This document shows positions 18,571 to 42,725 of a DNA stretch of 64,000 bases, in pieces; position 1 is the first letter of the stretch; each line of letters opens with the position of its first letter. The notes under the pieces are model-generated. The model did no database searches, had not been told where the DNA came from, and was given only the letters and a program-made list of their open reading frames with translations. The position numbers were made by a program, and so were the translations under genes. Origin of the DNA: Eubacteriales bacterium (GTDB lineage: Bacteria; Bacillota; Clostridia; Oscillospirales; CAG-272); assembly GCA_045649645.1 (NCBI GenBank), contig JAZRQH010000172.1:32214-96213 (forward strand). The letters run 5' to 3'.

Positions 18571-18849
18571 TTACACATTGCCGCATCTGTCCTGGGGTTT
18601 GGTTTCACAGACCCTGCTTCTGAGGTCGACAAGGATAGTGTCATCTCCTATGCGTACGATACGTTCCCAGGGTATACGTATCTCATCACATCTGCCGAAT
18701 ATAAAGCCTCTTGATTCTCCGGGGACCATAATAGCCACAAGCCTGCCGTTACAAACGTCAATATCAACATCGGTAACGCAGCCGAGCTTGCGTCCGTCAT
18801 TTATATTTACAACATCCTTGTCGCGTAGATCATTAATACAACAGCCCAT
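18571..18849 (-). CDS. YlmC/YmxH family sporulation protein (PRC-barrel)
   Basis: The LRDKDVVNINDGRKLGCVTDVDIDVCNGRLVAIMVPG...IPWERIVRIGDDTILVD pattern is typical of YlmC/YmxH. Start set at the ATG 6 nt after GAGGG. Confidence 0.8.
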   Translation of the reverse strand: MGCCINDLRDKDVVNINDGRKLGCVTDVDIDVCNGRLVAIMVPGESRGFIFGRCDEIRIPWERIVRIGDDTILVDLRSRVCETKPQDRCGNV

Positions 18850-18878
18850 AATCATCCCTCAAATAAAATATGACAGTA

Positions 18879-31035: not shown

Positions 31036-32361
31036 ATGTTTCTGCCGGAATATGCCGCAAAAGCAATAGAAATAATGTGCAATAACGGTTATAAGGTATA
31101 CCCTGTTGGCGGCTGTGTTCGTAATTATATCATGGGGCTTACGCCTGATGATTACGATATGACCACAAGTGCGCTTCCCGCAGAGACTCTCGCAGCCTTC
31201 AAGGATTTCACTACCTTTGATGCAGGATTAAAGCACGGCACGGTGTCCGTGGTTATAGACAAACACGTTATTGAGATCACTACCCACCGCATAGAAACAT
31301 CTTATACTGACAACAGACACCCGGACGAAGTAATATTTACACGCGACCTCAGTGAGGATCTGCGCCGTCGTGATTTTACTATGAACGCTATTGCATACGA
31401 TAGTGAGAGTAATAGCTTTTTTGATCCGTATAACGGTATTTCGGATATAGAGAGTAAGCTCATACGAGCTGTCGGAGATCCTGCGCAAAGATTCAACGAA
31501 GACGGTCTCAGGATCCTTCGTGCTCTACGTTTTTCTTCGGTTCTGGGGTTTGATATAGAGGACAACACCTCAGCGGCAATACACAGCTGCAAAGAATTAT
31601 TAAGAAATATATCTCCTGAGCGAATATATACTGAATTCACAAAGCTTCTGTGCGGAAAGAACGTAGCAAGCGTTATTTCGGATTACCATGACGTAATAGC
31701 AGAATTCATCCCTGAGATCACACATATGATAGGCTTTGACCAACAAAACCCTCACCACTGCTATGACGTATTCCGGCATACATTGGTAACGATGGAATCT
31801 ATTGAACCCGATCCGTTACTACGTTGGACAATGCTGCTACACGATATAGGTAAGCCCGACACGTTTTTCCTTGACGAAAAGGGAGGACATTTTTTCGGTC
31901 ACTACAAAAACAGCACAGAAATCGCTAAGAAGATCTTATTAAGACTCAAAGCATCAAACGATACTATAAATAAAGTAACCACACTTATATACCACCATGA
32001 CAGCGTTATTCCCGAAACCGAAAAATCGGTAAGACGCCTGCTTATGAAGCTGGGATATGATATGACTCTGCTTTTGTATAAGGTAAACCGCGCCGATGCA
32101 AAAGGACAGACACCGAGCCAGATTGAGGAAAGACTGCAGCATTTCAACAGACTGGAAGAGATCACCAAGGATATCATATCAGCAAACGAATGCTTTTCTC
32201 TGAAGGATATGGATATATCCGGAAAGGATATCATAGCGCTTGGCGTCCCTCCGGGTAAAAGGATAGGTCAGATACTTGACATCCTCCTTAACGAGGTTAT
32301 AGACGGTGAGATCAATAACGAAAAGGAGACTCTTATACAAAGAGCCTCTGAACTAAAGTAA
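31036..32361 (+). CDS. cca: CCA-adding tRNA nucleotidyltransferase (class II, with HD domain)
   Basis: YPVGGCVRNYIMG...DYDMTT, RRDFTMNA and the HD region HDIGKP. Start set at the ATG 8 nt after AAGGGG. Confidence 0.85.
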   Translation: MFLPEYAAKAIEIMCNNGYKVYPVGGCVRNYIMGLTPDDYDMTTSALPAETLAAFKDFTTFDAGLKHGTVSVVIDKHVIEITTHRIETSYTDNRHPDEVIFTRDLSEDLRRRDFTMNAIAYDSESNSFFDPYNGISDIESKLIRAVGDPAQRFNEDGLRILRALRFSSVLGFDIEDNTSAAIHSCKELLRNISPERIYTEFTKLLCGKNVASVISDYHDVIAEFIPEITHMIGFDQQNPHHCYDVFRHTLVTMESIEPDPLLRWTMLLHDIGKPDTFFLDEKGGHFFGHYKNSTEIAKKILLRLKASNDTINKVTTLIYHHDSVIPETEKSVRRLLMKLGYDMTLLLYKVNRADAKGQTPSQIEERLQHFNRLEEITKDIISANECFSLKDMDISGKDIIALGVPPGKRIGQILDILLNEVIDGEINNEKETLIQRASELK

Positions 32362-33030
32362 TTCTTTTATCTTTTCAAGCGCAGCCTTTTCGATACGGGA
32401 AACGTAGGATCTTGATATACCAAGCATAACTGCGATCTCTCTCTGAGTTTTTGCAGGTCTGCCGTCAAGACCATACCGCAGTATTATTATCTCCTTTTCC
32501 CTTTTGCTCAGCTTGTTTTTGATGATATCTACCGCCTTTTTGCAGTTTATACGGCTGTATATATCCTCGGCTATGGTATCGTCACAGCTTATTATATCGA
32601 TATACGTTAAAGGATTTCCGTCCTTATCCATATCTATCGCTTCATTTATCGATACTTCGTTTAACAGCTTTTTCTGAGAACGAAAATACATTAATATCTC
32701 ATTCTGAACACAACGGCTGGCATACGTAGCAAATCTTGCCCCGTTTGATACATCAAAGGAGTCTATAGCCTTGATCAGTCCGATCGTTCCTATAGACATA
32801 AGATCCTCAGGGTTCTTTGTTCCCGTGTAATATTTCTTGACTATGTGAGCGACCAGCCTCAGATTATGCTCTATCAGTAATTCCCTTGCCTTCATATCCC
32901 CTTCCTTAGCAAGGACAAAGTATTCTCTTTCTTTATCCGTCGGCAAAGGCGGAGGAAAATTATTACTCCCCGACACACGAAGAAACACACCTACAAATTT
33001 CATTAACGTACCGAACAACGTACCAATCAT
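32353..33030 (-). CDS. sigK: Sporulation sigma factor K (pro-sigma-K), uninterrupted
   Basis: Hydrophobic pro-sequence followed by NNFPPPL, LIEHNLRLVAHIVKKY and SIGTIGLIKAIDSF. By recollection this closely parallels B. subtilis SigK (NNAFPQPL, LIEHNLRLVAHIVKKF). Start set at the ATG 7 nt after AGGAG. Confidence 0.85.
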   Translation of the reverse strand: MIGTLFGTLMKFVGVFLRVSGSNNFPPPLPTDKEREYFVLAKEGDMKARELLIEHNLRLVAHIVKKYYTGTKNPEDLMSIGTIGLIKAIDSFDVSNGARFATYASRCVQNEILMYFRSQKKLLNEVSINEAIDMDKDGNPLTYIDIISCDDTIAEDIYSRINCKKAVDIIKNKLSKREKEIIILRYGLDGRPAKTQREIAVMLGISRSYVSRIEKAALEKIKELL

Positions 33031-33072
33031 ATCATCACTCCTCAAGCTATTATATTAAAAGGAAGCGTAATT

Positions 33073-33954: not shown

Positions 33955-34721
33955 AAAAAGAAGAATCCAGATTTATACAGAGCAATTTGTTTGAAGGCAT
34001 GGTCTCTATACGTGCTATTATCAACGCTTGTGACAACAACATCTCCGAAAGAAGGATAACCAACGTATACGTTTCCGAAGACAAGGCAAAAAAGCGCGCC
34101 AAGGAGCTTTCCTATATAAAGGCAAGATCCTATGATCTGGGATACAGCATTGAGACTGTTTCTGCAGAAGAGTTTGATCCGTTAACCATCGGAAACACCC
34201 ACGGCGGTCTGATATGCCGCTGCACAGACAGAAGCATACCTGTACTTACCGCGAAGGATATTAAAGATAAGGGCTTTTATGTTATGCTTGACGGAATAGA
34301 GGACCCCTATAACTTCGGATACGCCATCCGCAGTCTGTACGCCGCAGGTGTTGACGGTATCATCCTCGCACCGCGCAACTGGATGACTGCAGCAGGTGTG
34401 GTGTGCCGTGCTTCAGCGGGTGCAAGCGAAACCGTCCCTATGTACATGTGTGACGGAGTAGGTGCGTCCGAGATATTCAAAACCAAAGGCTACAGCGTTA
34501 TCTGTTCTGATATCAAAAACTCTGTTTCTGCATACGAAACAGAGCTCAAGTTCCCTATCTTCCTTATTGTAGGCGGAGAAAAAAGAGGAATAAGCAGCGA
34601 ATTGCTCGATCAGTGCGACAAGATCGTAAGACTTGATTATAAGGGTGATTTCGGGATGGCACTTTCAGCTGCCAGTGCAGCTTCAATACTTGCATTTGAA
34701 ATAATGAGACAGAATCTATGA
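33951..34721 (+). CDS. TrmH/SpoU family RNA 2'-O-methyltransferase (RlmB-like)
   Basis: LDGIEDPYNFGYAIRS, LIVGGEKRGIS and LSAASAASILAFE correspond to SPOUT motifs 1-3. ATGA overlap with the upstream gene. Confidence 0.8.
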   Translation: MKKEESRFIQSNLFEGMVSIRAIINACDNNISERRITNVYVSEDKAKKRAKELSYIKARSYDLGYSIETVSAEEFDPLTIGNTHGGLICRCTDRSIPVLTAKDIKDKGFYVMLDGIEDPYNFGYAIRSLYAAGVDGIILAPRNWMTAAGVVCRASAGASETVPMYMCDGVGASEIFKTKGYSVICSDIKNSVSAYETELKFPIFLIVGGEKRGISSELLDQCDKIVRLDYKGDFGMALSAASAASILAFEIMRQNL

Positions 34722-36001
34722 AATTTAAAAGAAGACAAAGATGGCTAAAGCTTGATAATGCGGCTAAGATCTTCCCTGCCGCACGAACAAGGACCTGGAC
34801 AAACGTTTTCAGACTGTCCGCTACTTTGATAGAAGATATAGATACCGAAATATTGCAGAAATCGGTTTGTGATATTAAAAGGAGATTTCCTTCTATATGC
34901 GTACACCTGGATAACGGCATATTTTGGTACTACATCGAGGAAACACCGAATGCACCTACAGTGACGAAGGAAGGTCCTCACGCCTGTATGAAAATGGAAT
35001 TCTCCGAAATAAGGAGATGCGCCGTAAGAATACTCTGTTATAAAAACAGAATATCAGCAGAGTTCTTCCATTCCCTCACCGACGGCAATGGTGCTCTTGT
35101 GTTTCTTAAGACCCTTGTAGCAACTTATCTTGAAAACAGATACGGTATTGATGTACCTCATACTGACGGTGTTCTGGATATATCAGTAAGGGCAAAGAAA
35201 GAAGAACTTGAGGACAGCTTTTTAAAGTATGCGGGCAGAATAGCCTCAGGCAGACGTGATACCGACGCTTATATGCAGAGCGGTACGCCGATTGAGGATG
35301 GCTTCACCCCTCTTATTACCGGCGTAATAGACGTTGACGAGATAAAGACGATATGCAAGCAATACGGTGTAAGCGTTACCACCTACCTTGCGTCAGTTAT
35401 GGCGTATGCTTTCCAGTCCATACAGGAAAAAGAAATATTAAAGCAGAAAAACAGGAAGCCTGTCAAAATATTTCTGCCGGTAAATTTAAGAAACTTTTAT
35501 CCCTCGAACACCTTGCGTAATTTTATACTTTACGTGATTCCGGGAATAAGTACAAAGCTCGGTCATTATGAGTTAGATGAAATAATCAAAAGCTTTCACC
35601 ATCAGATAGGCTACGGACTTACCGAAAAGAATATGAATGCTCTTATGGCAACAAACGTCAAGGATGAGCTAAATCCGTTATTGAGAGCGGTTCCCCTTTT
35701 CATCAAGAACCCGGTGATGAAGACAGTTTACAATCTTACAGGTGAGCGAAAATCCAGTATCAGTATGTCTAACCTCGGTAACGTAAAGATACCTAACGTA
35801 ATGGCGGATTACGTTGAAAGATTTGACTTTATCCTAAGCCCTCAGGCAACACAGCCGTCGGGATGCAGTGTAATATCCTTCAAAGGCAAGCTTTACATAA
35901 GCTTTGTCAGAAAGATCAAAGAACCAAAACTGGAAAAAGAATTCTTTACTACTCTTGTAAAGCAAGGGATTCACGTAAAGATAGAAACCAACAGGAGGTA
36001 G
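34718..36001 (+). CDS. Condensation/alcohol-acetyltransferase-like acyltransferase (HxxxDG motif), function unknown
   Basis: 427 aa with FFHSLTDGNGALVF at about residue 105, the catalytic His motif of the CAT / NRPS-C / WS-DGAT / PapA5 superfamily. ATGA overlap with trmH. Confidence 0.55.
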   Translation: MKFKRRQRWLKLDNAAKIFPAARTRTWTNVFRLSATLIEDIDTEILQKSVCDIKRRFPSICVHLDNGIFWYYIEETPNAPTVTKEGPHACMKMEFSEIRRCAVRILCYKNRISAEFFHSLTDGNGALVFLKTLVATYLENRYGIDVPHTDGVLDISVRAKKEELEDSFLKYAGRIASGRRDTDAYMQSGTPIEDGFTPLITGVIDVDEIKTICKQYGVSVTTYLASVMAYAFQSIQEKEILKQKNRKPVKIFLPVNLRNFYPSNTLRNFILYVIPGISTKLGHYELDEIIKSFHHQIGYGLTEKNMNALMATNVKDELNPLLRAVPLFIKNPVMKTVYNLTGERKSSISMSNLGNVKIPNVMADYVERFDFILSPQATQPSGCSVISFKGKLYISFVRKIKEPKLEKEFFTTLVKQGIHVKIETNRR

Positions 36002-36003
36002 CA

Positions 36004-36708
36004 ATGTCATACTGTGTTAACTGCGGTGTAGAGCTGGCTGAATATATAAAGAAATGCCCGTTGTGCTCAACGGAAGTAATCAACCCCAATCAGCCTTACG
36101 ATTTCGCTTCTTCACCTCCATATCCCGAGTATCAGCCTGTACCCAAGCAGAAGCTGAGCGCAAAGCTTGTTCTTGGAATAATAGCCATACTGTTTTTGCT
36201 TCCCGTTGCCGTTTGCATGACGGCAGATATAGCATACGACGGTGTTATCGGTTGGTCTGGATACGTTATAACCTCTCTGTTTGCCGTATACACTTTTATC
36301 GCTTCTGCGTTGACCGTTCACGGCGAATCCTTGCTGTTAGAACAGATATTCGACTATATGGCGATACTGTTGCTGTTAGTATATATCGAAGAGCACAGTG
36401 CCGGGGCCTGGTTTTTACCTTTAGCGTTGCCGATAACCGTCTGTGTTGCACTGACCACTCTCGTACTGACCTTCTTTGCAAGGATACTAAAAAAACGTAT
36501 ACTGACGGTTGTTTCTGTCGGAATGTTTCTTTCGAGTATAGTATGCGTAGTTTGTGATATACTGATCAAATACAATTATTTCAACAGCATATCTATAGGT
36601 TGGTCGTTATACCCCTTCATATCGTTGGTGATCATAGGCTCGGTGTTATTGTTTATTGACAATAACAAGTACATCAAGCGCAGACTTGAGAAAAAATTCT
36701 TCATATAA
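36004..36708 (+). CDS. Zinc-ribbon polytopic membrane protein, function unknown
   Basis: N-terminal CVNCG...CPLC ribbon, a Pro/Tyr-rich linker, then about 6 hydrophobic helices. The ATG lies 2 nt after the upstream stop. Confidence 0.6.
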   Translation: MSYCVNCGVELAEYIKKCPLCSTEVINPNQPYDFASSPPYPEYQPVPKQKLSAKLVLGIIAILFLLPVAVCMTADIAYDGVIGWSGYVITSLFAVYTFIASALTVHGESLLLEQIFDYMAILLLLVYIEEHSAGAWFLPLALPITVCVALTTLVLTFFARILKKRILTVVSVGMFLSSIVCVVCDILIKYNYFNSISIGWSLYPFISLVIIGSVLLFIDNNKYIKRRLEKKFFI

Positions 36709-36709
36709 T

Positions 36710-36735
36710 AAATGGACAGCAAATGCTGTCCATTT
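36710..36735. terminator. Bidirectional terminator between the convergent zinc-ribbon and Cys-rich genes
   Basis: 11-bp perfect stem AAATGGACAGC/GCTGTCCATTT with an AAAT loop. It abuts both stop codons. Confidence 0.75.
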
Positions 36736-37551
36736 CTATTTGCAACCGCAGTTGCCGTTGACATCCCTGTAAGAGGGCGGATAGAACTCACTTACGGGAA
36801 AGCTCATTTTCGCAAAGGCCGCACAGGGATCTTCGTCGGTAGATTCAACGCACACCTTGTCAGGAATAGTATATTCGGTAGCGTTTATCATGTACTGGCA
36901 AGGGCGCTCAATGCGCACCACAGAAAAGAATCCAAGGGTTACGTATACACTCTTATAACCATCGTCAACGTCGCATAGGCAGGACGACAAACAATCACAT
37001 ACGTGCTTGGGGATGTCGTCAACACAGCAACAACAGGATCTGCAATGCTCGGGCTTTCCCACCTTTACGCTAAGTGCGATAGGGTCTGTGACCTCGCACA
37101 CAACGGTAGGAGCATTACTTTTGCAGTTTTCGGTAAGCTGAGGCTTATCGCAGAAGCAGGGATTACCGGGTTCACTTCTGAAGATATTCACGTTACCCTC
37201 GCTGCCGTAAAGAATTATCTTCTTTTCGGTTACTGCAATACCGTCAAACTCCTGCACCTTACCGGGACACAGACAAGCCTCAAAGCATATACGTGTATAG
37301 AATCTTACCGTAATCTGATAGAATCCGCGGTTGAACTGCACCGGTTCAAGATCAAGGCAGCTCCATACCACCTTGGTGCTCTTTACCTTGATGGCGGACG
37401 TCTTTTCAATTATCTCCTGACCGAAGCCGGTAAGATATACTCTGACGTCCTCAAAGCAATCCTTGTCACGGCAGCTGTCAAGAATTCTGTTACAATCAAT
37501 ACAGACAGTCTCTGCATTGTTTCCATGGAAACAGTTTTTATTTTCAGCCAT
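36736..37551 (-). CDS. Cysteine-rich protein (27 Cys in 271 aa), candidate spore coat/exosporium component
   Basis: Clean ORF with AGGAGGG 9 nt upstream. Cys clusters include CIDCNRILDSCRDKDC, CFEACLC, CFC, HCRSCCCCVDD, CDCLSSCLC and a C-terminal CGCK. No signal peptide or TM helix. Confidence 0.7.
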   Translation of the reverse strand: MAENKNCFHGNNAETVCIDCNRILDSCRDKDCFEDVRVYLTGFGQEIIEKTSAIKVKSTKVVWSCLDLEPVQFNRGFYQITVRFYTRICFEACLCPGKVQEFDGIAVTEKKIILYGSEGNVNIFRSEPGNPCFCDKPQLTENCKSNAPTVVCEVTDPIALSVKVGKPEHCRSCCCCVDDIPKHVCDCLSSCLCDVDDGYKSVYVTLGFFSVVRIERPCQYMINATEYTIPDKVCVESTDEDPCAAFAKMSFPVSEFYPPSYRDVNGNCGCK

Positions 37552-37606
37552 GGGGATATTCCCTCCTATATGTTATAGAAAACACAAGACATATGTCTTC
37601 TCTAAC

Positions 37607-37633
37607 ATAATATGCACGGCATAAATAAAATGT
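37607..37633 (-). promoter_or_regulatory. Candidate sigma-K-type promoter (AC-N17-CATATTAT) for the Cys-rich gene
   Basis: On the minus strand, AC at 37633..37632, a 17-nt spacer, and CATATTAT at 37614..37607. This fits the remembered sigma-K consensus AC-N16/17-CATAnnnT. The motif is short and AT-rich, so a chance match is possible. Confidence 0.3.
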
Positions 37634-37659
37634 CCCATTGTAGAATCAATGGGACATTT
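37628..37659 (-). terminator. Terminator after the LRR surface-protein gene
   Basis: 13-bp perfect stem AAATGTCCCATTG/CAATGGGACATTT with a 6-nt loop, 3 nt after the stop. Confidence 0.7.
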
Positions 37660-37662
37660 AAG

Positions 37663-40600
37663 TTATTCAACAACAATATGATATAAATTCTCCGACTCGT
37701 CGTCATACCGTACGCAAAGAGTCCAATCGCCGGACGGAAGATCGTTTATAGATATATAACCGTCGATAATATCGGAGGGTTTAATATATCTTGAACCTTG
37801 TGCGTTTTTTACACCGTTATATGATTTCCATATACCGGGTGCATATCTGACGATCACGAGCCCGTCAAGGTCGCCTATGCTGATGCTGTTGCCCTTCTGC
37901 ACAACAGCCGGAACCTTCTTGGAAATATCAACGTGCTCTACGTGCTTGTAACCGTTATAATATTCAACGATTATCGTAACCGTTGTGTTTTCGCGGTACT
38001 GGATCTTATAGGACTCTGCATCCTTGATGGTCGTCTTATTGTTAAAGCAACGTAGACCCTTGGCAGTCTTGATCTCCGCTATGGAATTATATTCGCCGTA
38101 AGCGGTACGGATCACCTTGACGCCCCCGAGATTGCCTACGGTTACCTGAAGACCGTTTACATCAAAGGTAGGAACGTCAACGGTGAGGTTGGTATGAATA
38201 ACATCCTGTGTACCGTCGTTATAACGGATAAGCACGGTATGGTCACCGGGGTTAGCTGTGGTATAAGTAAAGTCGTGGTTTGCAAAATAGTTTGACAGTT
38301 TCGTCGCAGCCGCCTGATACTTTACGGTTGCGTTATTCTTGATTTCAGAATAACTGCTCCATGTACCCTCAGCTATCCACATATCCTTATAGTTTTCGCC
38401 GAAGTCCTTGACAGTAAGTCTGAGACCGTCAGATTCAAGATAAGGATTAATTTCGTTTACGTCACAGTAAAGGAAATAACCCGAACCGTCATTTGTTCTC
38501 ACCCAGAAGGTATATTCACCTACCCAAGGTACCTCGTACGTCATAACACCGTCAACTGTATACTTAGCAACAAGGGCTGCTGAAAGTGTCTGATTCTTCT
38601 CTGCCGCTTTTACATCGGCGCCCGTGGTATAGTGACCGATAGCGTATCTGATCTCCTTGATATCCTCAATACCGTCTATTGTCACAGTATAGTTATTAAC
38701 AGATGTAATATGGAAGGGTGTGAGATCAACAAAGTTGATTCCGTTATTCTGCGCAAACGTTTGTGCGTAGCTGCCCGAATAACCCTCGATAGATACGTTC
38801 GGTGAGTTCTTAAAGGCATCGTAGGAGATATAGGTCGTTGAATCGGGAATAACGATCTTTTTGAGATTTCCGCAGTTACTAAAGGCAAGACCTTCTATTG
38901 TGGTTACGGTATCGGGGATAATTATTTCCTCAACACCTTGGCAATATTGGAAAAGCTTATATGCGACTTTTCCGGTTCCTTCTTCAAAAGTCACACTCTT
39001 AAGAGTTTCGCAACCGTAAAATACCGATCCGCCGGTAGAATTAAGTGCCTTTGGTATCTCAATCCCTGTAAGTGCTGTTCCCATAAAAGCAGATTCACCT
39101 ATGTAAGTAAGTGACTCGGGGAGATCAACCTTTGTTAAACTACTACAATTATAAAACGCTCTGTATGCGATATCGGTAACCGAATCGGGAATGTCTATAG
39201 ATTTAAGTGCCGTACATCCCCTGAAGGTCTCTCTCTGTATCGCACTTATCGCTTCCGGCAGATCTATCTCGGTAAGAGCTGTGCACTGCTGGAAGGCATT
39301 ACCCTGTATCTCAGTTACAGATTCGGGGATATGGACCTTTTTAAGGTTGGAGCAATGCCAGAATGCCAGCCATTCAATAGTAGTAACAGAATCAGGGATA
39401 GTTATTTCTTCAAGACTGACACATCCTGCAAAAAGCTTTTCGGCAACAGTCTCTGTTCCGTCTTCAAAGGTAACCTTTTTAAGATTTTCACAATCTGTAA
39501 AAGGACCCCAATTTACAGTAGCGATACACTTATCAAGGGACTTGGGTATTTGGATCTCGGTAATCGGGATGTTTGCAAATGTTCTCTCACTAAGCTGTAC
39601 AAGGTTAGCGGGTAATTTCAACGATGTCAAATTTTCGCAATCAGCAAATGCCTCTTGAGCAATATATGTAACGTTATCGGGGAAATCCATCTTGGTAAGA
39701 CCGGTGCAACCTCTGAAGGCTTCGTTCTGTATCTCAGTAAGAGAGTTGGGTAATTCGACATATTCAAGGGATTTACAATTCATGAACGCATAAGGCTCAA
39801 TAACCGCAAGAGAATCGGAGAAATTAACGTATTTAAGATTTTCACAGCCGTTAAAAGCATGATTTTCTACGGTGGTGACTGTATCGGGAATCTTTATTTC
39901 CTCAAGGCTATCACAATGCGAAAAGATATTCTGAGGAATCTTTGTAATTCCATCTTCAAAGATTACTTCCTTAAGATACTGACAATCGGCAAAGGGACTG
40001 TCGGCGCCGTTTGCGCCGCCCTTTTCGAGGGTTTTTGGTATCTCAATCTTGGTTATTGCAGTATTCGCAAAAGCTCTGGAATCGATCTGCTTTACAGAAG
40101 CAGGAATAGATATCTCCTTAAGTGATGTACATCCATCAAAAGCACTTGTATATATCATTGTAACGCTGTTGGGGATGGTAAGAGCTTTAATGCCGCCGCA
40201 GTTTTCAAAGGCTCTGTTTTCTATCCTTGTTACGGAGGTAGGTATATGAAGCTTTGCCAAGCCTTTTTCTTCAAAGGCATATGCACCTACGCTTATAACA
40301 GGTTTACCGTCAATATTGGAAGGAAGATTTACCGTATAGTAATTCTTTAAGAATTTTGTGATAATTACGTTATTGTTTGTATCAACAGTGTATTCGTATA
40401 ACGGCACCTGAAAGCCCAAGGAGTCTACGGCATATGCACCGTTACAACCGTTCCAGCCGCTGCCTCCGTAGGCAGAGTCGGAATTAGTATAATATGAGCT
40501 TGAACCGTTACCCTGGGTGCAGGCTGCAACCTCTATATCATCCTCATAATGATGGACTATACGTACGGGGCTGTTGCCTGCATGGTAGAACTCTACCTTG

Positions 40601-42225
40601 GGATTAAAGGAAAACTCTACCTTGCCGAGATCAACCGAAGCATATCCGCCGTATTCTCCGTACAGATATCCGTTAAAGCTTACGCAGGTACCGCTTTCCT
40701 CACCGAACGTCCAGGAGGAGACCTTTACGTTTGCTTTAATACCCATCCTTATGTATACATATGCCGATACAAACGGCAGTTCGGTAACACCGAGAGAAGC
40801 CTTTAAACCTATGGCACCCGTAAGATCAGCATTACAACCGCTTCCTGTCTGATAGAAGCTTTTAACCTCACGCAAACCGCTTTGCTTAGTATATTCAAGA
40901 CCTGCGGTAAGTACACCTGTAACGTAACCGTTAATGCTGCCCGAGAGCTCTACCTCTACCTCAACGGTAAAGCTGCCAACACCGCCTACGTTGACCTTAA
41001 GCAGTGTAACCGAATCCTTACCCTTTGCCGCCAATGGATCGCAGGTTACTCCGTAGCTGATCTCGGCATCGCTGACGAGAGCTACGTATCCGTAATCCTC
41101 GTTCACCTTATAGCTTATCTCGGGATTATCAAGGGTGACCGACAGCGAAATTTCAATGCCGTCAAGGATTTCAAAATCACCCGAAAGGTCGATGGTTTTA
41201 AGCGGTTTAGTGCCGTTTGCTTTTGCCAAGCCATCGGTCTTTTCGCTGATATTCATTTCAACGCCCTCGGCAGGAATAAACTCCATATCATATGCCTTGC
41301 CCTGAGCATCAATAGACGTAATAAACTCCTCGGCGGCAACTGATTGTGTTGAGATGACGGTAACATTATTATTTATTTCAACCGCAAGAGCTGAATAAAT
41401 AACCGGAATATCATTGTAAAAAACAGCAAAGCTGTCACCGACTGAAATTGTTACAGGACTATCGGTAATGCTGACAACTCCGTTTTCATCGGCACTCACT
41501 GCGGTTCCGATCGGAACGACAACAACACCCTCAGCAAACTCGAAGGTATCAACTGTATTTTCATCAATTACTGTTGCTTCAATAATTGACTTTGCATCGT
41601 CAAGCATTATCTCTACCTCGGTATTTGTTACCGCAAGTTCAGGAGAAAAGCATCCGTCGACAAGCCCGAACCATCCACGATCAAGCGATATCTGCGCCGA
41701 TACTGCATCAACAACCGCTTCTGTATCGGCAAAGCTAAGTGCTGTATTCTCTTCAAGTGAATAACCGAGACAGAAGTTAAGTGTACTTGCTGCAAATTCT
41801 CTTGTTAATGCTTCGTCAGGATAAACAGGTTCACCTGCTTCTATATCGACTACACCGAAGGATATATTCAGAATAATATCAGTGTAATAAGGATGATCCT
41901 CGGAAAGGTCACTGAAATAGTTATCCGGAGCTGCCATGGTCTCTACCGTCATTTCAAATACGACAGCTAAGTTATGCAGCCACTGTGCTCTTGTAATAAC
42001 TGATTCTTCACCGTAAACAAGATCATCGCTTGTAGCAGTGATCAAATCTGTTTTGTTTTCCGGCAGTACTACAGTAGTACCTCTGTTCGCACCGGCATTG
42101 TCAACGGTGTTATCAGGAGCTACATTTACAGTAGTCTTAACACCATCGTTACCGGCAAATAAGCCTATGGGCAAAGACGTAAACATAAGCATTACGGTCA
42201 ATATTACCGAAATTACTCTTTTCAT
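37663..42225 (-). CDS. Large secreted cell-surface protein: signal peptide, SLH-like region, beta-rich middle, BspA-type leucine-rich repeats (LRR_5), four C-terminal Ig-like repeats
   Basis: MKRVISVILTVMLMFTSLPIGLFA signal peptide. FSDLSEDHPYYTDI...LTREFAASTL resembles SLH. There are over 20 repeats of IPxSVTxIxxxAFxxCxxLxxI. Start set at ATG 42225; a TTG at 42246 is also possible. Confidence 0.85.
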   Translation of the reverse strand: MKRVISVILTVMLMFTSLPIGLFAGNDGVKTTVNVAPDNTVDNAGANRGTTVVLPENKTDLITATSDDLVYGEESVITRAQWLHNLAVVFEMTVETMAAPDNYFSDLSEDHPYYTDIILNISFGVVDIEAGEPVYPDEALTREFAASTLNFCLGYSLEENTALSFADTEAVVDAVSAQISLDRGWFGLVDGCFSPELAVTNTEVEIMLDDAKSIIEATVIDENTVDTFEFAEGVVVVPIGTAVSADENGVVSITDSPVTISVGDSFAVFYNDIPVIYSALAVEINNNVTVISTQSVAAEEFITSIDAQGKAYDMEFIPAEGVEMNISEKTDGLAKANGTKPLKTIDLSGDFEILDGIEISLSVTLDNPEISYKVNEDYGYVALVSDAEISYGVTCDPLAAKGKDSVTLLKVNVGGVGSFTVEVEVELSGSINGYVTGVLTAGLEYTKQSGLREVKSFYQTGSGCNADLTGAIGLKASLGVTELPFVSAYVYIRMGIKANVKVSSWTFGEESGTCVSFNGYLYGEYGGYASVDLGKVEFSFNPKVEFYHAGNSPVRIVHHYEDDIEVAACTQGNGSSSYYTNSDSAYGGSGWNGCNGAYAVDSLGFQVPLYEYTVDTNNNVIITKFLKNYYTVNLPSNIDGKPVISVGAYAFEEKGLAKLHIPTSVTRIENRAFENCGGIKALTIPNSVTMIYTSAFDGCTSLKEISIPASVKQIDSRAFANTAITKIEIPKTLEKGGANGADSPFADCQYLKEVIFEDGITKIPQNIFSHCDSLEEIKIPDTVTTVENHAFNGCENLKYVNFSDSLAVIEPYAFMNCKSLEYVELPNSLTEIQNEAFRGCTGLTKMDFPDNVTYIAQEAFADCENLTSLKLPANLVQLSERTFANIPITEIQIPKSLDKCIATVNWGPFTDCENLKKVTFEDGTETVAEKLFAGCVSLEEITIPDSVTTIEWLAFWHCSNLKKVHIPESVTEIQGNAFQQCTALTEIDLPEAISAIQRETFRGCTALKSIDIPDSVTDIAYRAFYNCSSLTKVDLPESLTYIGESAFMGTALTGIEIPKALNSTGGSVFYGCETLKSVTFEEGTGKVAYKLFQYCQGVEEIIIPDTVTTIEGLAFSNCGNLKKIVIPDSTTYISYDAFKNSPNVSIEGYSGSYAQTFAQNNGINFVDLTPFHITSVNNYTVTIDGIEDIKEIRYAIGHYTTGADVKAAEKNQTLSAALVAKYTVDGVMTYEVPWVGEYTFWVRTNDGSGYFLYCDVNEINPYLESDGLRLTVKDFGENYKDMWIAEGTWSSYSEIKNNATVKYQAAATKLSNYFANHDFTYTTANPGDHTVLIRYNDGTQDVIHTNLTVDVPTFDVNGLQVTVGNLGGVKVIRTAYGEYNSIAEIKTAKGLRCFNNKTTIKDAESYKIQYRENTTVTIIVEYYNGYKHVEHVDISKKVPAVVQKGNSISIGDLDGLVIVRYAPGIWKSYNGVKNAQGSRYIKPSDIIDGYISINDLPSGDWTLCVRYDDESENLYHIVVE
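37666..38721 (-). repeat. Four tandem ~85-aa domain repeats (protein level) at the C-terminus of the surface protein
   Basis: The recurring pattern is (V/I)T(V/I)...(I/V)RYAxGxxxxxxxIK...(Y/W)T(F/L/V)x(V/I)R(Y/T)xDG...; for example IKEIRYAIGHY, MWIAEGTW, VKVIRTAYGEY and LVIVRYAPGIW. Confidence 0.6.
38722..40332 (-). repeat. LRR_5 (BspA-like) repeat array, ~23-aa units organised in three ~115-aa super-repeats
   Basis: There are three parallel segments. They begin ITKIEIPKTLEKGG...EVIFEDGITKIPQNIF, ITEIQIPKSLDKC...KVTFEDGTETVAEKLF and LTGIEIPKALNSTGG...SVTFEEGTGKVAYKLF. Confidence 0.8.
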
Positions 42226-42264
42226 GATGTTTATTGTTTCCTCCAAAAGTTAAAACATAAGCGA

Positions 42265-42317: not shown

Positions 42318-42725
42318 TTAAACGTACTTCTGAGCGGACTCAGGAAGATCTTCCTTAGCGATGGAGTTGGTAGCAACAACAGTTACGCCGTTCTTTTCGC
42401 TGAATGCGTTGAGCTTGTCAGCGAGAGAAGCAAGCTTATCAACGTCGTTACCGATGATCTTAAGAGCAGAGTCTATGAAGATATGAGTGATATCATGGTT
42501 GCTTGCGTACATACCAACGATCATTCCGTACAGAGAGCAAGCGTTCGCAACTCCGTATTCCTCGGTATCTGCAAGTCTGATATTCTTATCAAGCTCGTGA
42601 ATAAGCTTTGTGCCTTTTTCGATAAAAGCAACACAACCGTTGGTTTCCTTTACCGCAGCATTAGCCTGAGCAACGATCTCCTTGGTCTTGCCTGCGCCCT
42701 TAAGGCCTACAATAAATTTTAACAT
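42318..42725 (-). CDS. Small stand-alone P-loop NTPase (135 aa), function unknown
   Basis: Walker A GLKGAGKT at residues 7-14 and a Walker B-like HIFIDSA. Codon usage resembles that of tsf, rpsB and pgi. Confidence 0.65.
   Translation of the reverse strand: MLKFIVGLKGAGKTKEIVAQANAAVKETNGCVAFIEKGTKLIHELDKNIRLADTEEYGVANACSLYGMIVGMYASNHDITHIFIDSALKIIGNDVDKLASLADKLNAFSEKNGVTVVATNSIAKEDLPESAQKYV

Follow-up and report, generated by a model that had tools for sequence, protein, structure and literature searches.

CsxA is a protein of the exosporium basal layer in Clostridium sporogenes and in C. botulinum of group I (PMC4942563, PMC7333573), 299 amino acids long and with 25 cysteines (PMC4942563). 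It self-assembles in Escherichia coli into the p6 lattice of the native exosporium, a lattice that dissociates only under harsh reducing conditions (PMC7333573), and it is essential for exosporium formation (PMC7333573; bioRxiv 10.64898/2026.09.03.749163). All descriptions of the protein to date concern Clostridium species (PMC4942563, PMC7333573). In this article, we analyze a gene for a cysteine-rich protein of 271 amino acids, located on the minus strand of a 64,000-nucleotide stretch of genomic DNA from an Eubacteriales bacterium (contig JAZRQH010000172.1). The whole stretch is referred to as the window, and the coordinates of its open reading frames (ORFs) are given on it. We find that the protein is homologous to CsxA over nearly its full length and that its gene carries a promoter motif conserved across the family, and we consider it likely from these comparisons that it is a CsxA-family subunit of a disulfide-cross-linked spore-envelope lattice, produced late in the mother cell.

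Relationship of the protein family to CsxA

36736-37551, minus strand: coding sequence of the divergent CsxA-family protein (271 amino acids, 27 cysteines; AlphaFold2 model with a predicted local distance difference test score (pLDDT) of 82.8)

The ORF begins with an ATG at 37551 and ends with a TAG stop codon at 36738-36736. Cysteines make up 9.96% of the protein and are found at residues 7, 17, 20, 27, 32, 65, 89, 93, 95, 132, 134, 143, 152, 170, 173-176 (a CCCC run), 185, 187, 191, 193, 218, 234, 243, 268 and 270, the C-terminus being CGCK. For comparison, cysteine amounts to 1.9% in the remaining 51 long ORFs of the window when these are pooled and to 7.4% at most in any of them; 27 or more cysteines in 271 residues have a binomial probability of 7.5e-12. 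The protein has no transmembrane helix or hydrophobic N-terminal core on the Kyte-Doolittle scale (the highest mean over 19 residues is 0.98), and a search against Pfam and NCBIfam at E<=10 returns no matches, including none to metal-cluster or zinc-finger families. These results agree with a first-pass annotation of this DNA, which had reported 27 cysteines (10%) in 271 residues including CCCC, exactly as the ORF reads, and had seen neither a transmembrane helix or signal peptide nor an Fe-S or zinc-finger signature. When the 91 members of the family alignment (A1) are scanned against Pfam, only scattered chance matches are found, and sequence searches of the Protein Data Bank, with the single sequence and then with the family profile, give noise alone (E>0.1).

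The same annotation saw no clear sequence match to known cysteine-rich spore proteins and suggested a possible distinct family, a view that has to be abandoned in the light of direct comparison with CsxA (UniProt G9F2G0 from C. sporogenes, printed in the supplement of PMC4942563). BLASTP already detects 30% identity within the C-terminal 70 residues (E 6e-6). The family profile aligned with hhalign to CsxA alone gives a probability of 98.0% and E 2.2e-13 over 218 columns (family 16-260, CsxA 24-259), and with an alignment of 49 CsxA sequences (A3) as the target the values are 99.1% and E 7.3e-19 (209 columns). The window protein reaches 41.9 bits with a CsxA hidden Markov model (HMM) built in this analysis; conversely, the HMM of the window family matches 87 of 87 CsxA-family sequences at 34-61 bits, and Pfam PF27077 ('CsxA') is precomputed on all 87 of these CsxA matches.

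In the joint alignment the window protein and CsxA are 21.6% identical over 222 positions and have six cysteine columns in common, where C17/C27/C32/(228)/C234/C243 of the window protein correspond to C40/C50/C55/C238/C244/C251 of CsxA. The similarity is concentrated in short motifs, i.e., CIQVPKVFDQCLRKEC of CsxA compared with CIDCNRILDSCRDKDC of the window protein near the N-terminus, and ITLGLF...VPAYGYCPVPEEC..HDPCKEF...YPP of CsxA compared with the family consensus VTLGxF...IPAYDYCxPxKEC...DPCxxF...FFPP near the C-terminus. The cysteine-rich loop occupies the same place in both proteins, just before the (I/V)TLGxF strand. AlphaFold2 models of the two (pLDDT 82.8 for the window protein and 73.6 for CsxA) show an identical order of six long beta-strands and a short helix after the DPC motif, behind the strands. 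Judged by these alignments, the window family forms a divergent branch within the CsxA family, one that falls mostly under the current Pfam threshold.

Relatives of the window protein (E<=1e-3) amount to 1,493 clusters at 90% identity and 939 clusters at 50% identity. A second search with P0171, the family member with the best CsxA HMM score, yields 2,368 clusters at 90% identity, a set that may overlap with the 1,493 clusters of the first; its members belong to the window family, with 257-308 bits by the family HMM and 48-82 bits by the CsxA HMM. Scanning species-representative genomes with 16 closer family sequences as the query gives at least 568 confirmed matching stretches. Every named match among those listed is called 'hypothetical protein'. 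The best 80 loci come nearly all from metagenome-assembled genomes (MAGs) of uncultured Clostridia, Eubacteriales or Oscillospiraceae (gut, rumen), the closest locus (L001) having 92% identity, and the sole cultured-species name among the matches listed is that of Pseudoclostridium (Clostridium) thermosuccinogenes (P0454).

Seven cysteines are conserved at 70-97% in the family alignment (C17, C27, C32, C234, C243, C268 and C270), spaced as C-x9-C-x4-C, C-x8-C and a terminal CxC, of which the last (C268, C270) is specific to the family. Residues ~125-200, which include the CCCC run at 173-176, form a hypervariable poly-cysteine loop of 57-97 residues with anywhere from 0 to 17 cysteines. The number of cysteines per protein ranges from 3 to 31 across the family, and the median share is 3.7% in the group of P0171 and C. 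thermosuccinogenes and ~8.5% in the gut group, with 10% in the window protein. Because some 6-7 core cysteines are kept throughout the family while the total load varies, the extreme cysteine content is best explained as a lineage-specific elaboration of the loop. With about seven cysteines conserved next to a loop that holds 0-17 of them, cross-linking is a better fit than a fixed metal site. At the level of sequence, the pattern fits a structural core combined with a putative cross-linking loop.

Promoter and transcript of the cysteine-rich gene

37631-37636, minus strand: -35 element GGGACA (AC at 37633-37632), 17 nucleotides (nt) 5' of the CATA of the -10 element
37603-37615, minus strand: extended -10 element GCATATTATGTTA with the core CATATTAT at 37614-37607, of the mother-cell sigma-E/K class
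37577-37601, minus strand: predicted 5'-terminal stem-loop of the leader, AGAAGACAUA...UGUGUUUUCU (leader -14.2 kcal/mol, z -2.15)
37561-37567, minus strand: ribosome-binding site AGGAGGG, 9 nt 5' of the ATG at 37551
36710-36735, minus strand: terminator hairpin after the stop codon (-18.4 kcal/mol, z -4.86)
37628-37659, minus strand: upstream terminator, which ends the gene of a 1527-amino-acid leucine-rich-repeat (LRR) protein (13-bp stem, -18.1 kcal/mol, z -6.41)

The upstream regions of 80 family loci have a motif in common, (G/A)(T/A)CA-N15/16-GCATAnnAT(G/A)nTA, whose CATA is located 52-99 nt 5' of the ATG (mode ~60). It is present at 12 bits or more in 76% of these 80 regions compared to 3.5% of 606 controls, where the scores are leave-one-out and the controls are upstream regions of other ORFs at the same loci. 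In the window, the promoter AC-N17-CATATTAT scores 20.1 bits by the family position weight matrix and is the sole site of at least 20 bits on both strands of the 64 kb. Bona fide csxA promoters match the same motif at 17.3 and 20.1 bits (an example is ATCACA-N15-GCATACTATATA, 57 nt before the ATG), and the promoter of the C. thermosuccinogenes family gene scores 15.5 bits. GGAGG stands at the position equivalent to the ribosome-binding site in nearly all family loci.

In published work the -35 element AC is the signature of sigma-K and ATA that of sigma-E (PMC3789822). The -10 element of the family agrees with the published mother-cell -10 element, and the -35 AC with that of sigma-K (PMC3789822). 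A sigma-K promoter has been mapped for C. difficile CD1067, an analogous cysteine-rich gene. Since ATA is absent and AC-N17 is present in the window, sigma-K is favoured. The sigma-K-like promoter proposed in the first-pass annotation is thereby sustained as a conserved motif of the mother-cell sigma-E/K class. The proposal that the gene is monocistronic between two strong terminators is confirmed too: both hairpins are real, and since the terminator at 37628-37659 insulates the gene from the LRR gene upstream, transcription as a single gene is expected. The downstream hairpin, which is common to the cysteine-rich gene and the convergent DUF6320-like gene ending at 36708, was missed by a simple terminator scan because its U-tract is interrupted.

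The -35 element (37636-37631) sits in the 3' arm of the LRR-gene terminator, so that terminator and promoter overlap. A second feature of the leader is a conserved GAAGA right after the -10 element, followed by an inverted repeat that would form a stem-loop at the predicted mRNA 5' end or close to it (L001-L080); the transcription start is placed by prediction near the start of this stem-loop. Leaders with z<-1.5 make up 58% of the family compared to 41% of an imperfect control, a modest excess. The stem-loop at the 5' end may serve to stabilise an mRNA that is made late and highly expressed.

Gene neighbourhood

32353-33045, minus strand: sigK, 230 amino acids, predicted trans-acting sigma factor (NF004471, 276 bits compared to a cutoff of 252)
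18571-18855, minus strand: YlmC/YmxH family sporulation protein (81.5 bits compared to a cutoff of 44.2)
42318-42725, minus strand: 135-amino-acid ORF that contains GLKGAGKT (Walker A) and HIFIDSA (Walker-B-like), no significant match in Pfam or NCBIfam
37663-42246, minus strand: 1527-amino-acid LRR (BspA/HupY-like) protein, between the 135-amino-acid ORF and the cysteine-rich gene
34718-36001, plus strand: 427-amino-acid ORF without a match in Pfam or NCBIfam, converging on the CsxA-like gene
36001-36708, plus strand: zinc-ribbon membrane protein with a weak DUF6320 match (27.1 bits, below the cutoff), converging on the CsxA-like gene

Conservation of the neighbourhood was counted over 83 homologous loci (L001-L083). 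The window encodes two sporulation markers, sigK, which is intact and uninterrupted with no skin-like insertion, and the YlmC/YmxH gene; both sit among the housekeeping genes of the window. The distance of 3.7 kb between sigK and the cysteine-rich gene, which had been cited earlier as a supporting argument, is correct, but proximity to sigK is not functional evidence because sigK adjoins the family gene in only 6 of the 83 loci, all of them close relatives.

A block of upstream genes is conserved more widely. It consists of an S11 D-Ala-D-Ala carboxypeptidase (31 loci), phosphoglucose isomerase (41 loci) and the 135-amino-acid ORF (46 loci), which in 45 of the 46 is found on the same strand directly upstream of the family gene, usually with a gap of 105-240 nt. 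The product of this ORF may be a mini P-loop nucleoside triphosphatase (NTPase) that acts as a partner of the spore protein. In the window it starts just 33 nt after the phosphoglucose isomerase gene pgi, a gap so short that the ORF may be no more than a member of a pgi operon in a conserved syntenic block.

The LRR gene that separates this ORF from the cysteine-rich gene looks like a lineage-specific insertion coding for a vegetative surface adhesin: it adjoins the family gene in none of the 83 loci, and the 81%-identical relative at L081 is without it. The LRR protein was considered as a spore-surface partner and rejected, given its hydrophobic, signal-peptide-like N-terminus (read from the translation by eye) and its adjacency to the family gene in no other locus; it is also unrelated to the other 1526-amino-acid ORF of the window. 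Synteny of the two convergent ORFs at 34718-36001 and 36001-36708 is confined to the closest relatives (L001 and L081-L083).

The csxA gene itself frequently, though not universally, occurs together with a divergent partner gene, bclA-type genes and glycosyltransferase genes according to published work, the divergent partner being described in PMC7333573. In C. thermosuccinogenes, a divergent ORF of 430 amino acids precedes the family gene and is a homologue of the csxA partner (BLASTP E 1e-6 and 8e-5). Because C. thermosuccinogenes keeps the divergent partner of csxA, orthology can be argued, and the window family is probably orthologous to CsxA.

Several further observations concern csxA and its partner in Clostridium species and related genomes. 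The partner family (430-609 amino acids, without a Pfam match) lies divergently beside csxA, its members finding one another by BLASTP at E 1e-6 to 7e-56, and in L086 and L087 a PF11823 (Se_S_carrier) gene accompanies the partner gene. Two csxA paralogues stand in tandem in C. estertheticum, and of these the second is the better promoter match (20.1 bits); in this species as well as in Hathewaya histolytica, csxA is followed by a DUF4489 gene. The locus coordinates are as follows.

L087 6545-7837, L084 3967-5796, L085 3991-5775 and L086 4252-5787, minus strand: partner-family genes
L086 6001-6744 and 7019-7783, L085 6946-7740, and L086 7938-8471: csxA paralogues and DUF4489 genes

Proposed role and comparison with known spore-surface systems

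The events at this locus can be pictured as follows. RNA polymerase of the mother cell in late sporulation, most likely with sigma-K, would transcribe the gene from AC-N17-CATATTAT. The leaderless protein would be made in the mother-cell cytoplasm and fold into a scaffold of six long beta-strands, with about six conserved cysteines holding the fold; this conserved core would stabilise either the fold or the oligomer. Subunits would then assemble, surrounding the forespore, into an ordered oligomeric layer, and intermolecular disulfides, to which the hypervariable poly-cysteine loop and the C-terminal CxC would contribute, would lock it. The outcome would be a chemically resistant outermost spore layer, i.e., the basal layer of an exosporium or an outer coat. 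What the analysis shows is the homology, the pattern of cysteine conservation, the conserved promoter, the predicted topology of the fold and the presence of sporulation genes in the host. Self-assembly, disulfide cross-linking and a location on the spore are properties that we infer for the window protein by homology with CsxA. The earlier guess of a cytoplasmically made, cysteine-rich protein of the spore coat or exosporium gains support from the full-length homology to CsxA and the conserved mother-cell promoter.

Several observations weigh against so direct a parallel with CsxA. Among the 120 relatives listed for the window protein (at least 51% identical), not one carries a precomputed PF27077, and among the 120 listed for P0171 just one does (P0451). 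The window protein is without the N-terminal FIPRPGxVNKQGxLPDP segment of CsxA, and because identity is only ~22%, its quaternary structure and its layer may differ from those of CsxA. There are no collagen-like genes of the bclA type and no glycosyltransferase gene of the csxA-type neighbourhood in the window or the 83 gut loci, and there is no homologue of the divergent csxA partner in the window or at L001-L083. Finally, the -35 element of most family members is TCA and not ACA, which leaves sigma-E as a lesser but substantial candidate, although the promoter sequence makes sigma-K the more probable factor.

Part of this evidence suits a different assignment, in which the protein belongs to the CsxA family and to the spore envelope but serves as a component of the outer coat or of an interspace (parasporal) layer, or as a morphogenetic organiser, as CsxC, CdeC and CsB are reported to do. 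The low identity to CsxA, the missing N-terminal segment, the different C-terminus (CxC) and the absence of the BclA-like collagen and glycosyltransferase neighbours that accompany csxA are all compatible with it. In addition, related cysteine-rich proteins serve different layers (bioRxiv 10.64898/2026.09.03.749163), and the range of 3 to 31 cysteines per protein implies that the capacity for cross-linking varies by lineage. We nevertheless regard this assignment as unlikely, if worth serious consideration, in view of homology that extends over the full length and is nearest to CsxA itself, the lack of a detectable relationship with CsxC (hhalign 0.3%), and the csxA partner synteny kept in C. 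thermosuccinogenes. A more far-reaching variant holds that the gut-Clostridia branch is not a simple CsxA orthologue but a functionally distinct spore-surface scaffold, perhaps forming another lattice or layer, and that the mini P-loop NTPase encoded by the conserved upstream ORF possibly helps to build it. The branch comprises thousands of unannotated proteins, its cysteine content is raised to ~10% by the hypervariable poly-cysteine loop, it has a C-terminal CxC, and the context of bclA and partner genes is lost. We find this variant distinctly improbable; if true, many uncultured, transmissible spore-formers among the gut commensals would have it as the main protein of their outer shell.

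Two other explanations place the protein outside the spore envelope. Seven cysteines conserved at 70-97% could in principle hold a structural metal, and the protein could then be soluble and either metal-binding (Zn or Fe-S) or redox-active, its cysteines serving as metal ligands, but we give this very little credence since Pfam and NCBIfam yield no metal-cluster or zinc-finger match at E<=10, most of the cysteines lie in a hypervariable loop with 0-17 of them, and the protein combines homology to a structural lattice protein with a sporulation promoter. The facts that adjacency to sigK is not conserved and that most carriers are uncultured MAGs could be taken to suggest a vegetative or stress protein that is cysteine-rich by chance and unrelated to sporulation. 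Such a protein is hardly conceivable here: the mother-cell promoter motif is kept both throughout the family and at csxA, SigK and YlmC/YmxH are encoded in the window, and the sole cultured species named among the matches listed, Pseudoclostridium thermosuccinogenes, forms spores.

By its homology to CsxA, the window family carries the CsxA family beyond Clostridium species to a very large number of uncultured gut Clostridia, and the testable annotation 'CsxA-like spore envelope protein' becomes available for proteins now called hypothetical. A disulfide-locked shell of the CsxA type is suggested to be widespread in intestinal spore-formers that are uncultured, with relevance for their persistence and for host-to-host transmission. 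For late mother-cell genes of these gut lineages, the analysis also provides both a sequence marker and a motif of the promoter. It reveals no new principle, the protein being a known kind of spore-surface building block.

Among the cysteine-rich proteins of other spore-formers, CotY, CotZ and ExsY of Bacillus follow a like strategy, as they are made in the mother cell and self-assemble into disulfide-locked crystalline layers. A distinct alpha/beta fold and the formation of hexameric rings are reported for them. Kinship with them is not borne out by PF10612 (CotZ), which matches neither the window protein (E<=10) nor any of the 91 family members, and on sequence grounds CotY, CotZ and ExsY are analogues of the window protein and not homologues. 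Similarly, CdeC (C. difficile CD1067) and CsA/CsB of C. sordellii are cysteine-rich, leaderless exosporium morphogenetic proteins, CD1067 being dependent on sigma-K. CdeC, at ~405 amino acids, is larger than the window protein; it has no Pfam or NCBIfam link to the latter. Self-assembly of CdeC and CsA/CsB is described in PMC7677010, and their fold is reported to be related to that of CsxA.

The SPOCS/DUF3794 proteins (PF12673; SipL, SpoVID and CotE) offer a structural comparison, the window protein being likewise all-beta with long strands in its AlphaFold2 model. PF12673 gives no match for the window protein (E<=10) or the 91 family members (E<=1). CsxA is reported to have the SPOCS/DUF3794 fold and a trimeric tripod in common with CsxC, CotE and SipL (bioRxiv 10.64898/2026.09.03.749163), and since the window protein is homologous to CsxA, it should have this fold and tripod as well. 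CsxC was rejected as a sequence relative on the hhalign result given above; it matches DUF7852 and, weakly, the SipL SPOCS model (E 8.7e-4). CsxB has no Pfam match.

CsxA is thus the closest described system, and the comparison with it shows both differences and similarities. The window protein has a C-terminal CGC where CsxA has an acidic tail, it is without the CsxA-specific cysteines C84, C149 and C224, and the hosts differ, CsxA being found in Clostridium sensu stricto and the window branch in uncultured gut Clostridia. On the other hand, the two proteins have in common the motifs C-I-x3-[KR]-[IV]-[FL]-D-x-C-x2-K-[DE]-C, (I/V)TLGxF, PAYxYC.P..EC, DPCxxF and (F/Y)PP, they are close in size and cysteine load (299 amino acids with 25 cysteines in CsxA compared to 271 with 27), neither has a signal peptide, and their genes have a like mother-cell promoter architecture.

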